Shown in pieces: positions 950 to 58,735 of a stretch of 64,000 nt of DNA (position 1 is its first letter; each line of letters opens with the position of its first letter). Both the position numbers and the translations under genes were made by a program. Origin of the DNA: Bacillota bacterium. Its GTDB lineage: Bacteria > Bacillota > Clostridia > Acetivibrionales > DTU013. The notes below the pieces were generated by a model that was not told where the DNA came from, did no database searches, and saw nothing but the letters and a program-made list of their open reading frames with translations. The stretch spans positions 153,404 to 217,403 of the forward strand of contig JAEYRB010000010.1 of the NCBI GenBank assembly GCA_023409735.1, written 5' to 3'.

Positions 950-1291
950 TGTAAATAAGTGCTGTAGCTTGCGGAAAAGAGACAAAAAGAAGAGTCAGAA
1001 AGGGATGGTTCCTTTTGACTCACAGGATGTTCATGCGTTCTTGTATGCAGCTTGCGGCATGGATGTTCATGGAATATTGTGATGAACTTAGAGAATGCAG
1101 TGAGGATCAATAAATTTGCCGGAAGAACACAGAGGAACTCAGGAGAGTAAGTTAATCATAGTAAGGATTCCAGCTGCAGTGAAAGCTCGCGAAATTGCAG
1201 TAAGCGTTTATTGAGCTGCGGTTAGGTATTTGTACGATTTTGCAGAATCGTATTATTGCAGTGAAGGTTGATGAGTTTACAGGGAGGATTC

Positions 1292-2239
1292 ATGGAATAC
1301 AGGGAGCTTGGAAAAACCGGACTAAAGGTTTCAAGAATGTGCTTCGGTGCGCTCGTTATCGGTCCGCTGCAGCTTAATATGCCACCTGCGGAGGGGGCCA
1401 AGGTAATTAAAGCAGCGCTGGAGCGGGGAGTTAATTTTATAGATACGGCTGAGCTTTATGGAACCTATGACCATATCAGAGAAGCCTGCAGGGGGTGTAA
1501 GGAAAGGCCGATAATATCAACAAAATCCTACGCTTATTCTGCTGAGGGGGCCAGGAAGAGCCTTGAAAAAGCCAGAAGGGCACTGGATACTGATGTGATT
1601 GACATATTTATGCTTCATGAACAGGAAAGCAGACTCACTCTAAGGGGGCACAGAGAAGCCCTGGAATTTTACCTCAATGAACGCGAAAAGGGGAGAATAA
1701 AAGCGGTTGGTGTTTCTACGCACAATATTGAGGTTGTAAGAGCAATTAGTCAGATGCCCTACATTGATGTAGTACACCCTCTTATTAACCTGACGGGAAT
1801 AGGCATAGGTGACGGCACCAGAGATGAAATGCTGGACGCCATAAAGGAGGCCTATGAATGTGGTAAGGGCATATATAGCATGAAAGCCTTGGGAGGAGGC
1901 AATTTGCTTTATTCATATGATGAGTGCATGGGCTTTATTCTGGGTATCCCATATATACATTCTACAGCTGTAGGCATGCAGAGTGTAGAAGAAGTAGAAA
2001 TGAATGTGCTAAGATTTGAGAACAAGGAAATTGCTGACGGCCTGAAGGCGTCAATAACCTCAAAGGGAAAGCATCTGCATATCGATTACTGGTGCGAGCA
2101 TTGCGGAAGGTGTGTTGAGCGCTGCAAGCAGGGAGCCTTGTCACTGGTAGACAATAAAGTGACAATTGACAAAGATAAGTGTCTTTTGTGCGGATATTGC
2201 GGAAGCGTCTGTCCGCAGTTTGCTATAAAAATATGCTGA
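1292..2239 (+). CDS. aldo/keto reductase fused to a C-terminal 2x[4Fe-4S] ferredoxin domain
   Basis: MEYRELGKTGLKVSRMCFG...FIDTAELYG AKR N-terminus; C-terminal CEHCGRCVERC and CLLCGYCGSVCP cluster motifs; GGGAGG before ATG 1292. Confidence 0.85.
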   Translation: MEYRELGKTGLKVSRMCFGALVIGPLQLNMPPAEGAKVIKAALERGVNFIDTAELYGTYDHIREACRGCKERPIISTKSYAYSAEGARKSLEKARRALDTDVIDIFMLHEQESRLTLRGHREALEFYLNEREKGRIKAVGVSTHNIEVVRAISQMPYIDVVHPLINLTGIGIGDGTRDEMLDAIKEAYECGKGIYSMKALGGGNLLYSYDECMGFILGIPYIHSTAVGMQSVEEVEMNVLRFENKEIADGLKASITSKGKHLHIDYWCEHCGRCVERCKQGALSLVDNKVTIDKDKCLLCGYCGSVCPQFAIKIC

Positions 2240-2525
2240 TATGCATACTAGTATTAACCTTGAAACATAATAATCCGCTGTAAGTATAAGAATGATTTTG
2301 CCTTGAAATAATCCGTTAGCGTAAATATAACGAGGCGAAAGATATTCTCCGCTTCGCTGTAACTCACTAGCATGTTGGTGTGTTGTAAAGGAAATTCATG
2401 CTCTTTGCTCATGTATCATGGGTATGGAATGTGTTATAATTTTTTATTATCGGTTGAAGAAAGCAATTTGTTGAACTGGTTGACCTGAATAACACAAAAT
2501 GCACCAGCGCACTTTGGAGGACTTA

Positions 2526-2942
2526 ATGAGAATAATGGGTATTGATTTTGGATACAGTAGAATAGGAATTGCTGTAAGTGATCCTCTTGGATGGACAGCA
2601 CAGGGACTTGACACGATCTCTTGGAAAGGCTCCATGGAGCAGCCCGCTGCGAAAGTAAAGCAGCTTGTAGATGAGTATAAGGTTGAGAAGATAGTAATAG
2701 GACTGCCGAAAAACATGAATGATACTATCGGGCCAAGCGGCGAGATGGCTATGGAATTTGGAGATATGCTTTCAAAGATAACCGGACTTGAGATCATAAA
2801 ATGGGATGAAAGGCTTACGTCTGTTGCTGCTAATCGTGCAATGCATGAGATGGGTATGAAGACTTCAAAAAAGAGGGGCGCTGTTGATAGAATAGCAGCT
2901 GTATTTATATTACAGGGGTATCTTGACAGTATCTCAAAATAG
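2526..2942 (+). CDS. ruvX: Holliday-junction resolvase-like nuclease RuvX/YqgF
   Basis: MRIMGIDFGYSRIGIAVSD...VEKIVIGLPKNMNDT...WDERLTS; GGAGG 5 nt before ATG 2526. Confidence 0.9.
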   Translation: MRIMGIDFGYSRIGIAVSDPLGWTAQGLDTISWKGSMEQPAAKVKQLVDEYKVEKIVIGLPKNMNDTIGPSGEMAMEFGDMLSKITGLEIIKWDERLTSVAANRAMHEMGMKTSKKRGAVDRIAAVFILQGYLDSISK

Positions 2943-2996
2943 AGGTAAGTTATTTATGTAAAGAGCAATTGAAGAAAGCGAAAAGGAGGCTTTGGC

Positions 2997-3287
2997 ATGG
3001 ACGAAGAAAGAGATGATATAGTTGTATTAGTTGATGAAAACGGTGAAGAGGTTGAATTTGAGCATATTGATACAATAGAAATGAATGGAAATGAGTATGT
3101 TGTTCTTGCTCCGCTTAGTGAAGATGAAGAAGAAGAGCTAGACGAGGAAGAAGTTATTATATTAAAGGTCGAGCATGGTGAAGATGGTGAGGATACCTTT
3201 ATTACCATTGAGGATGATGATGAGTTGGATGATGTCTTCGATGAGTTCCAGTCAAGGATGGAAGATCTATTCGAGCCTGAAGACTAA
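2997..3287 (+). CDS. DUF1292 (UPF0473) acidic protein
   Basis: IVVLVDENGEEVEFEHIDTIEMNGNEYVVLAP core plus acidic tail; usual partner of ireB/ruvX in Firmicutes. Confidence 0.8.
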   Translation: MDEERDDIVVLVDENGEEVEFEHIDTIEMNGNEYVVLAPLSEDEEEELDEEEVIILKVEHGEDGEDTFITIEDDDELDDVFDEFQSRMEDLFEPED

Positions 3288-3307
3288 AATATTTCCCGGG
3301 TATTGAC

Positions 3308-3339
3308 AAATCAGCATCTTTTTAGATGCTGATTTTTTG
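3308..3339 (+). terminator. intrinsic terminator
   Basis: AAATCAGCATCT-tttt-AGATGCTGATTT followed by TTTTG. Confidence 0.8.
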
Positions 3340-3438
3340 TACTCTTTACATTGTTAATATTATCCATTTGAAGGGATTTATAAAATATTAATAGAATATT
3401 ATATAGGTTTTATTTACTAATTCCTCTGGAGGTATGAA

Positions 3439-56779: not shown

Positions 56780-56783
56780 TCCG

Positions 56784-57062
56784 ATGATTAAAATTAATCT
56801 CCAGCTGTTCGCTCACAAAAAGGGAGTTGGCAGCTCAAGAAACGGCCGTGACAGTGCGGCTCAAAGACTCGGTGTCAAGAGGGCTGACGGACAGTTTGTT
56901 CTGGCCGGCAACATTCTTGTAAGACAAAGAGGTACAAAGATTCATCCTGGCGAGAATGTAGGAATAGGCAAGGATGACACCCTTTTTGCTCTGGCTGATG
57001 GAAAGGTTAAGTTTGAAAGACTGGGCAAGGACAAAAAGCAGTGTAGTATAGTAGTTGGTTAA
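56784..57062 (+). CDS. rpmA: 50S ribosomal protein L27 with Prp-cleavable N-terminal extension
   Basis: [24 protein letters not shown]...; GAGGAGG upstream of ATG 56784. Confidence 0.95.
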
Positions 57063-57077
57063 TATGTATAAAATAAG

Positions 57078-57106
57078 TCCCGGCAGAACTAGCCGGGATT
57101 TTTTTC
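57078..57106 (+). terminator. intrinsic terminator after rpmA
   Basis: TCCCGGC-agaacta-GCCGGGA followed by T8. Confidence 0.85.
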
Positions 57107-57222
57107 TTATACGGCATTGCCCGAAGGGCACACAGCAAAAAGGCAAGAGGTGCTTGATGCCGGTATTTTTCTTATACCGGGCATTTGCATGCTGACACTA
57201 ACAGAAAATTAAGGAGCAGAAA

Positions 57223-58497
57223 ATGTTAATTGACCGCGCAAAAATACATATAAAGGCCGGGGACGGCGGAAATGGTAAGGTCTCCTTTCACAGAGAGAAA
57301 TATGTCGCTGCAGGCGGACCTGACGGCGGTGATGGAGGAATCGGAGGCGATGTTATAATCATTGCCGATGAAAGCTTAAGGACTCTCATCGACTTTAAAT
57401 ACAAGAGAAAGTACGTGGCTGAATCCGGTGCGGGCGGCGGTACCTCCAACTGCTCAGGCAAGAGCGGAAAAGATTTGATCATCAAGGTTCCTATGGGAAC
57501 GCTTATAAAGGACGAGAAAACCGGCCGCATCCTTGCAGATCTGGTTAAACCGAAGCAAAGTGTCATTATTGCTAAGGGCGGAAAAGGCGGAAAGGGAAAT
57601 CAGCATTTTGCTACGGCAACACGCCAGGTACCGAGCTTTGCACAGGCAGGAACTCAAGGTGAGGAGCTGACAGTGCTGCTTGAACTGAAGATCATAGCTG
57701 ATGTAGGTCTTGTAGGCTTCCCCAATGCGGGTAAATCCACTATATTATCCATGGTAACCAAGGCCGATCCAAAAATTGCAGATTATCCATTTACTACTCT
57801 TGAACCCAATTTGGGGGTGGTAAATCTTGGTGAGGGTAACAGCTTCGTACTTGCTGATATACCGGGACTTATAGAGGGAGCGCATGAGGGAGTAGGCCTA
57901 GGTCATCAATTCCTCAGACATGTGGAGCGGACTAAGGTGCTGATACATGTAGTCGATCTTGCTGCAGTAGATGGAAGAGATCCGCTTGGCGATTTTGATA
58001 TTATTAATAATGAGCTGGCCAAATATGATTCCAAGCTTGCAGAAAGGCCACAGGTGGTTGCAGCAAATAAGACAGACCTTCCCGAGGGTATGGAAAATCT
58101 CCCGGACTTTACAAAGGAGCTGGAAGCCAGGGGCTACAAGGTGTTCCCAATATCCGCTGCAACAAATAAGGGAGTCAGGGAGCTGATGTATTATGTTGCA
58201 GAACAGCTTAGGGGCCTGCCGGAAATAGTGCTGACTAACGAGGACGGCGGCGAGACAATATATACAGCAGAAGAGGAGACGCCTTTCACTGTAAGAAAAG
58301 AAGGAAATGTTTATATTGTCGAGGGCAGCTGGATAAGAAAGGTCGTTGGCTCAACCAACTTTGACGTATATGAATCTTTGCAGTATTTCCAAAGGTCTCT
58401 GAAATCAAGGGGCGTTATTGAAGAACTTGAGAAGCTAGGAATCAAAGAGGGCGATACTGTAAAAATTTATGACATAGAGTTCGACTATGTGCCGTAG
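57223..58497 (+). CDS. obg: GTPase ObgE/CgtA
   Basis: Obg fold ([15 protein letters not shown]), G domain ([22 protein letters not shown]) and a C-terminal OCT domain. Confidence 0.95.
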
Positions 58498-58512
58498 TAG
58501 TTTTAAATTTAT

Positions 58513-58735
58513 CAAGGGCAATAAATCGGAACAGAGTAATGAGAATATACGAAGGGCAATCAATCAGTACGCAATAATGTGAATGTATGAAGGACATTTA
58601 TTCGGAATAGAATAATGGGAATATACGAAGGACATTTATTCCAACGAATTAATTTATTGCGACCATATTTATTGAAAATATGGCAAAAGCATTTATCCAA
58701 GAATGAATAATATTGTGGAAAACATTCAACAGCTT
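58513..58735. repeat. ~38-bp degenerate tandem array (5-6 units) downstream of obg
   Basis: (C/G)AAGG(G/A)CA(A/T)T... units starting at 58513, 58551, 58589 and 58627, then looser copies at 58674 and 58718. Confidence 0.8.

Follow-up and report, generated by a model that had tools for sequence, protein, structure and literature searches.

Tandem repeat arrays crowd the intergenic spacers of a 64-kb segment from an uncultured Clostridia lineage and in places echo the ends of genes

Introduction

Bacterial genomes are normally kept compact by a deletion bias. In a stretch of 64,000 nucleotides from an uncultured bacterium of the Clostridia (Acetivibrionales, DTU013; contig JAEYRB010000010.1 of assembly GCA_023409735.1, positions 153,404 to 217,403), hereafter the window, many intergenic spacers hold diverged head-to-tail repeats, some of which copy the end of the adjacent gene together with its stop codon. 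How such arrays arose is the question raised by this locus. An original prediction, made from the letters alone, had listed 16 loci of this kind and had proposed either a lineage-specific slippage or duplication process at gene ends or an artefact, whether of assembly or of a model-generated sequence. The analysis reported here points to ordinary local tandem duplications that have piled up to unusual density in the spacers of one uncultured Clostridia lineage, a reading to which we attach a probability of about 0.78.

Repeats beyond chance and background

The window was searched with Tandem Repeats Finder (TRF), and 37 curated intergenic regions with 60-nt flanks were submitted to a banded self-alignment for direct repeats at offsets of 8-400 nt, with 100 dinucleotide-preserving shuffles per region as the null. 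TRF reported 8 of the 16 predicted loci outright, at 5300-5454 (69 bp, 2.2 copies), 7223-7331 (36 bp, 2.9 copies), 22026-22121 (18/36 bp), 27664-27965 (148 bp, 2.0 copies, 87%), 30065-30200 (14 bp, 9.7 copies), 34608-34675 (15/25 bp), 48975-49147 (25/51 bp) and 58514-58641 (38 bp, 3.1 copies). In the self-alignment, z exceeded 4 in 17 of the 37 regions and the raw score was at least 35 in 13. Eleven predicted loci, those beginning at 5301, 7223, 20398, 22031, 27657, 30072, 34613, 36457, 42268, 48976 and 58513, lie far beyond chance (z 12-84); the regions of all 11 surpass their shuffles at z>10. Four others (2256, 23840, 45786 and 57101) are weak and nominally significant, the first two (p 0.002 and p 0.004, respectively) only with affine gaps and pre-set halves, and the proposed locus at 960-1260 is not supported, having given no repeat signal in any test (self-alignment, affine-gap test).

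The arrays are confined to spacers and gene termini. Among coding segments used as a control, 1 of 79 gave z>4 and none gave z>7. TRF reported 16 short repeats inside coding sequence and, by hand count, 11 of them have a period that is a multiple of three, which fits a filter imposed by selection; codon periodicity contributes too. The CorA coding sequence carries in-frame duplications of 21 bp (two copies, 28173-28214) and 12 bp (1.9 copies, 28390-28412).

Density was compared in mechanically defined gaps free of open reading frames (ORFs), a hit being a score of at least 35. Thirteen of 30 gaps were positive in the window, where ORF-free DNA makes up 18.5%, against 16 of 280 (ORF-free DNA 7.6%) in a first background set of 1.1 Mb from 80 other Clostridia loci and 20 of 290 (9.1%) in a second set of 0.93 Mb; gaps from isolate or complete genomes were all negative (0 of 48). 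The excess in window gaps corresponds to a Fisher odds ratio of 12.6 (p 1e-7) and remains when gaps are matched for length (10 of 24 in the window, 9 of 163 in the background). Relative to ~2 Mb of other Clostridia loci, repeat density is raised ~6-fold per spacer and 10-14-fold per kb, so the suspicion of an unusual density was justified. Two genes of less than 100 amino acids, rpmA (L27; 56780-57222) and a DUF1292 gene (2997-3287), had at first been counted as intergenic, and taking them out lowers the curated non-coding estimate from 20.6% to ~19.7%. Several intergenic arrays per 10-20 kb, mostly AT-rich and of short period, also occur at some background loci from distant uncultured Clostridia, among them the obg-neighbourhood loci L120 (4102-4328, 9891-9940 and 17073-17186) and L102 (13566-13778) and the CorA-neighbourhood loci L009 (6992-7171) and L008 (998-1144). 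Because the L120 and L102 arrays are AT-rich, short-period and from unrelated genomes, we draw no conclusion from them on a trait at the level of the clade.

Repeats in so many spacers might belong to a dispersed or mobile family (REP/BIME, MITE or MIRU-like) or be att-site duplications left by integrating elements, and some units do overlap stop or start codons in operon spacers, as MIRUs do. However, an all-against-all blastn comparison of the 37 intergenic regions gave no match across loci, as the original prediction had held, and on this count the REP/BIME, MITE and MIRU families were rejected. The copies are adjacent and the echoes adjoin the gene end without an insert, no integrase or transposase was found among 30 window proteins scanned, and the units derive from local ancestral sequence (see below); att duplication was likewise set aside. 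We give practically no credence to an origin of this type.

Authenticity of the arrays and differences between strains

The metagenomic source of the sequence makes it legitimate to ask whether strain variants were laid in tandem by misassembly, or even whether the sequence was generated by a model. Moreover, contigs assembled from short reads are interrupted within arrays: in window coordinates, L003 and L004 begin at 27867 and stop at 30140, and positions 20401-20500 of L001 are a gap of Ns at window position ~38222, inside the array at 38200-38255. However, exact CorA and PyrG proteins are encoded on independent contigs (ENA ERZ28597484 scaffold_203 and ENA ERZ27269263 k141_32994) and in the Logan assemblies SRR13401007 and SRR13358427, and all four, which stem from separate samples and were built with different assemblers, repeat the arrays letter for letter, with 99.83-100% identity to the window there. 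This recurrence means that the sequence is natural and not the product of an assembler. Flattened allelic bubbles cannot give arrays of 7-10 diverged units, and a relative at 87% identity has a homologous duplication junction. The surroundings of the arrays are also normal: Pfam matches are as expected for all genes tested and synteny with relatives is kept. The window has a GC content of 37-47% and encodes housekeeping genes of ordinary Clostridia type (pyrG, glutamine and glutamate synthases, asnB, ABC exporters, CorA), an L21-Prp-L27-Obg operon, RNase G and a protein with SLH domains. We regard an artefact as extremely improbable, and this branch of the original prediction is abandoned.

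Comparison of nearly identical strains captures the arrays in the course of change. Strain L001 shows 4 substitutions against the window over 21 kb, together with an additional 51-bp unit, an exact copy, at 36642-36723 (2.6 copies in that strain), whereas in L002 there are 20 substitutions and a single 14-bp unit is absent at 30141-30154. New units are thus exact copies, and changes in copy number are frequent relative to point mutation. Over longer times the copies diverge. Identity between copies within arrays ranges from 64 to 100%, indicating that events of many ages are present, and the differences between copies (80 transitions, 53 transversions and 25 indel columns) have the spectrum of ordinary decay and not of targeted mutagenesis. 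In practice, such arrays interrupt assembly from short reads and can lead gene callers astray where genes end, and loci of this kind will be under-represented or truncated in collections of metagenome-assembled genomes.

Local origin of the arrays and growth of the spacers

The ancestral state was read from close relatives. A congener is represented by two syntenic contigs, L090 and L179 (Logan SRR30200687; ~80-85% nucleotide identity, ~82%), and the other near relatives are L094 (87% identity) and two short contigs carrying pyrG, L088 and L089. Further away, the best CorA match among the GTDB representatives scanned is 54%, and the Obg relatives that bear a name (69-73%) belong to Acetivibrionales or Ruminiclostridium-like Clostridia.

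A significant repeat was found in none of the 17 spacers of the congener, and its spacers are shorter. With the same gene caller, non-coding DNA amounts to 15.6-27.9% in the window organism and 7.5-10% in the congener, that is, 2-3.7 times as much. The convergent asnB-ApbA spacer measures 340 bp against 26 bp in the congener, the Obg-YhbY spacer 268 bp against 71 bp and the divergent epimerase-TetR spacer 319 bp against 162 bp; the ANTAR-pyrG spacer has 280-316 bp where three relatives have 28, 75 and 80 bp, and the convergent CorA-epimerase spacer has 183 bp where L094 has 0 bp. The arrays are a derived state specific to the lineage, and to this extent the lineage-specific process that had been proposed is borne out.

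The arrays are also of local origin, as the congener's single-copy sequence is matched by their edges and by the echo units. In the Obg-YhbY spacer, 234 nt are inserted between the Obg stop and a conserved element, CTTATCAACAT, that comes directly after this stop in the congener. Nearly all of the insertion is made up of about six 38-bp units in varied states of decay (58506..58735, +; 3.1 copies plus ~2-3 more decayed units; z 21.4), each beginning with a motif that resembles CTTATCAACAT. In the epimerase-TetR spacer, a 14-bp unit is repeated ~10-11 times between the epimerase ribosome-binding site and the TetR promoter (30036..30200, here and below without a sign where no strand is assigned; z 62). 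This array occupies the place of the congener's CCTTGACCGATCATTCTTGACTAGT; its edge units still resemble CCTTGACCGATCATTCTTGACTAGT and its central units are homogenised. In the ANTAR-pyrG spacer, an array of a 36-37-bp unit (7223..7337, −; 2.9 copies, z 18.3) abuts the stop of the ANTAR regulator gene, and the 28 nt nearest the ribosome-binding site are conserved.

These positions raise the question of function. The arrays could be cis-elements kept by selection, such as regulator-binding sites, modules stabilising terminators or 3' untranslated regions, or insulators of convergent genes. Several do lie in promoter or leader regions: the TetR promoter array just described (30036-30200), an AT-rich 18-bp unit in 5-6 copies in the divergent promoter region of ApbA and the cation-efflux gene (22012..22121; z 27.8), and a 14-15-bp unit (TTCATGAGTACTTAT) in ~5 copies, the final 2.6 of them identical, located 5' of a lysine riboswitch (34602..34675; z 13.6). 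Furthermore, a duplication at the ABC exporter-CorA junction has been kept since before the split from L094, with window copies that are 94% alike. On the other hand, no motif is common to the loci, the same junctions in the syntenic congener lack arrays while the genes are intact, copy number differs between strains that are 99.8-99.97% identical, and echoes of coding ends freely gather frameshifts and substitutions. Selection for function is, in our opinion, unlikely. The riboswitch itself (34357-34529, −; 79.5 bits) precedes an amino-acid ABC transporter operon (SBP_bac_3, permease, ATPase) and, with an L21 leader and a tRNA-Pro, makes up all that Rfam and ARAGORN recognised in the window; none of these matches coincides with an array, and known RNA families were rejected as their cause.

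Echoes of gene termini

Comparison of 73 gene termini with the adjacent spacer gave a strongly significant result for four 3' ends and one 5' end: the 3' ends of the ABC exporter (z 30), asnB (z 14.8), epimerase (z 12.9) and pyrG (z 10), and the 5' end of CorA (z 10). As had been proposed, the first unit of the array falls within the 3' end of the coding sequence at pyrG, asnB and the ABC exporter; the same was not confirmed for GH4, whose array starts 9 nt past the stop. The GH4 and Obg ends were not significant, both arrays beginning just past the stop, and the GH4 array has a weak resemblance to the coding end.

At pyrG (5300..5454, −; 69-bp unit, 2.2 copies, z 34.6), unit 1 runs from the conserved LVENAL motif through the last codons and the stop to 30 nt beyond; after it come a complete and a partial echo, both diverged (84% identity). 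The LVENAL codons at the start of the unit are common to L088 and L089. The asnB array (20396..20681, +; z 45) contains seven units of 39-45 bp, of which the first is the genuine 3' end with its stop and the other six are echoes of the last ~33 nt and stop; in five of these echoes a stop codon is retained at the corresponding position. A more recent higher-order duplication, of 206 bp with 94% identity, is made up of units 1-2 and 6-7. From the opposite side, about two diverged ApbA 3' echoes (20682..20792, −; GCAGCTAGCC... units), seen by eye and not significant in the terminus test, follow on, and the asnB and ApbA echoes together fill the 340-bp convergent spacer.

The largest unit, of 148 bp and present twice (27657..27952, +; z 83.8), reaches from the 3' end and stop of the ABC exporter across the spacer into CorA, taking in its ribosome-binding site and opening codons. 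Copy 1 joins the genuine exporter end to a truncated CorA start, and copy 2 joins an echo of the exporter end to the genuine CorA start. L094 has the homologous duplication with an identical junction (AAGT|AGGTAC), plus a further 50-bp sub-duplication, which indicates that the event predates the split of the two species. Finally, the epimerase 3' end has one echo (28945..29071, −; 28945-28986 against 29030-29071) at an offset of 85 with 79% identity (z 8.5), which lies within the 183-bp CorA-epimerase spacer.

The GH4 array (48975..49229, +; z 21) is old and decayed, with a 25/51-bp period and ~7 units of 64-69% identity, and includes a younger 29-nt direct repeat at an offset of 57 (49144-49229). 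The two closest GH4 homologues found (L097 and L098; 85-88% amino acid identity, different organisms) also have stop-containing repeats at the 3' end (L097 4924-5014, L098 4820-4870), one a 47-bp echo in two copies and the other a 12-bp unit in three (ATCGGCTGAATA). In each of these contigs it is the sole repeat-positive spacer.

Echoes that carry a gene end and its stop could also be silent cassettes that recombine into the gene and vary the C-terminus. The tail of PyrG after LVENAL (5415-5436), whose last codons lie inside the repeat unit, is indeed KISSKG here and RRWTID or RRKTAD in relatives, and the stop-containing GH4 repeats in two other organisms vary in length. However, variation would serve no known need in the genes involved, which code for housekeeping enzymes and transporters, many arrays lack any coding sequence, and no recombinase or invertible element was seen in the window proteins scanned. 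The functional asnB unit is the one nearest to the congener end (30 of 37 matches), and the idea that echo unit 3 preserves the ancestral asnB end was rejected for the same reason. Programmed variation appears very improbable.

The proposed restriction of the process to gene ends is too narrow, since divergent promoter regions and 5' leaders hold arrays as well and one array takes in the start of a gene. A better view of the gene-end echoes is that they are the remnants tolerated by selection after duplication across a terminus, in spacers that were originally very short. Where the ancestral spacers measured 0-80 bp, many of the duplications that could be tolerated would necessarily extend across the end or start of a gene, and this accounts for both the stop-carrying echoes and the gene-start echo without a process aimed at gene ends.

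A model of duplication and decay

Local tandem duplication, as favoured here, would proceed in several steps. A segment of 14-150 bp would be duplicated head to tail by replication slippage or template switching, probably with short stretches of direct microhomology as primers (microhomology-mediated tandem duplication). Whole exact units would then be gained or lost through slipped-strand mispairing or unequal recombination, a type of change seen directly between strains. Selection would purge the events that break reading frames, to judge from the anatomy of the arrays, so that the survivors lie wholly in the spacer or straddle a terminus and leave an intact gene with a dead echo, either of a 3' end with its stop or of a 5' start. 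Echo copies would decay by ordinary point mutation, in line with the observed spectrum, some being partly homogenised by conversion, and the surviving copies would be neutral. The net effect would be the growth of spacers.

Traces of priming were sought in single-copy relatives. In the congener, 6-nt arms stand one period apart at two sites, CTTGAC at 14 nt (p 0.02) and AAAAAT at 39 nt (p 0.03), which suggests microhomology priming for two arrays; no such arms were found in the relatives' single-copy sequence for the Obg and ANTAR arrays.

Several observations weigh against our interpretation or limit it. Arms were found for only 2 of the 4 arrays that have a single-copy relative, with modest p values. 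The 148-bp copies at the exporter-CorA junction are 94% alike although the duplication is older than the L094 split, implying conversion or re-duplication; they need gene conversion, or hint at retention by selection. The A-B-A form, shared by several young repeats (57101-57190, 42268-42355, 45786-45843, 49144-49229 and 36642-36723) in which an arm of 18-31 nt is repeated once at an offset of 38-66 nt (1.3-1.6 copies), is not a direct product of simple tandem duplication; in the repeat at 57101, the middle part is missing in the congener and holds small hairpins. Recognisable repeats sum by hand to ~1.8 kb, about one-quarter of the excess non-coding DNA, and since some three-quarters of the excess is without a recognisable repeat, another source of spacer growth may exist. 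The genome was covered over 64 kb plus 4.6 kb to the left of the window, where one of three spacers is weakly repeat-positive. Finally, local duplication leaves the cause of the high density unexplained.

A higher duplication rate, a weaker deletion bias or weaker selection could each produce that density. As a tentative extension, possible rather than probable, the lineage may have undergone a heritable shift in the balance of small tandem duplication and deletion, by which spacers grow 2-4-fold within the divergence time of a genus. Impaired processing of flaps or Okazaki fragments, or loss of an exonuclease, possibly raised microhomology-mediated duplication; loss of a deletion bias is a possible cause as well. 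If such a shift were real, the organism would offer a natural free-living model for the birth of non-coding DNA, of new C-termini and possibly of new small ORFs.

Further repeats and neighbouring genes

Outside the loci discussed above, a 51-bp unit in 1.6 copies lies at 36642..36723 (z 14.1), and a 23-bp unit in ~2.4 copies at 38200..38255 (+; z 7.6), 5' of a gene that starts at 38290. At 40151..40233 (+; z 5.4), the ribosome-binding site and start region of a GntR-family gene (start at 40221) are echoed with 79% identity at an offset of 49. Direct repeats of 25 nt (92% identity, offset 63; 42268..42355, z 11.9) and 20 nt (18 of 20 matches, offset 38; 45786..45843, z 4.3, marginal) were also detected, the former in a convergent spacer. 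Between rpmA and obg (57101..57190, +; z 3.2), ~87 nt that are extra relative to L179 are bounded by an 18-20-nt direct repeat at an offset of 66, directly 3' of a terminator hairpin that the congener shares. The repeats at 28945-29071, 38200-38255, 40151-40233 and 49144-49229, the CorA start within the 148-bp unit and the ApbA echoes at 20680-20790 were absent from the original list.

Four window genes are extra relative to L090, set between conserved neighbours and each bordered by long spacers. They encode an ammonium transporter with a P-II domain (16650-18455), a cation-efflux protein (22139-23038), CorA (27909-28844; also in L094) and a hypothetical protein of 134 amino acids (31111-31515). 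In the long ThiD-SLH spacer, a small ORF without annotation (~54 amino acids, VDKIKKTEKKIEKGIAAGYKKMEEGVASGAKKMEEGVVSGYKAVEKKLSPKNKS; ~61170-61345, −) is provided with a ribosome-binding site, contains an in-frame repeat and is not found in the shorter L179 spacer.

Comparison with known systems

Two known array-forming systems were rejected. A CRISPR array would show near-identical repeats with unique spacers of comparable length between them; here the units abut directly and diverge, and no cas-like domains were seen in the genes scanned. As for a diversity-generating retroelement, the differences between copies are for the most part transitions, both C/T and A/G (80 transitions to 53 transversions), and not adenine-specific, and no reverse-transcriptase domain was found among 30 window proteins scanned, which do not include every ORF.

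The arrays resemble bacterial variable-number tandem repeat (VNTR) or minisatellite loci in their head-to-tail units, which TRF and self-alignment place without intervening sequence, and in the gain or loss of whole exact units between nearly identical strains. However, typical bacterial genomes have a few VNTR loci per Mb-scale region, compared with ~40% of spacers here. MIRU-VNTRs are tandem units of 40-100 bp in the operon spacers of mycobacteria, with ends that overlap the stop and start codons of the flanking genes. They form one dispersed sequence family, whereas each locus in the window has its own locally derived unit.

The closest precedent is Ehrlichia ruminantium, which reportedly carries intergenic tandem repeats genome-wide, as Collins et al. 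(2005, PNAS) and Frutos et al. (2006, J Bacteriol) are said to have described. Its coding ratio, the lowest among bacteria, results from long intergenic regions, and its non-coding tandem repeats are in active expansion and contraction (PMC10710844). Long intergenic regions, a low coding ratio, many non-coding tandem-repeat loci and whole-unit gain and loss between strains are all features in common. However, E. ruminantium is an obligate intracellular member of the Rickettsiales with a small genome, whereas the window organism, one of the uncultured Clostridia, is an anaerobe whose gene set is of the ordinary free-living type; moreover, the phenomenon is genome-wide there and concerns a 64-kb window here. 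Since the split from its congener, spacer DNA in the lineage has increased roughly two- to threefold, and a visible part of this growth is local tandem duplication, dead gene ends included. If this extends genome-wide, the organism would be a free-living counterpart to E. ruminantium in which to study the birth and decay of non-coding DNA, and would offer insight into the remodelling of gene termini and into the replication or repair defects that raise the rate of small duplications.

With respect to mechanism, tandem repeats in bacteria and in other life are described as arising predominantly by microhomology-mediated tandem duplication (bioRxiv 10.64898/2026.02.28.708716), and another study likewise presents it as an origin of tandem repeats (PMC8639346). 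In that model, a single-copy segment flanked by short direct repeats is duplicated and then becomes an array, and arms at the right spacing were found here for 2 of 4 arrays. The portions of these papers on which we draw describe for no bacterium the density and retention of duplication products seen in the window. A parallel to the gene-end echoes exists in plant mitochondria, where tandem duplication associated with microhomology reportedly produces incomplete gene copies next to intact ones (PMC7643612); that case concerns an organelle genome and ours a bacterial chromosome. In kind, the arrays of this Clostridia lineage are an extreme case of a known mutation process and not a new kind of element.

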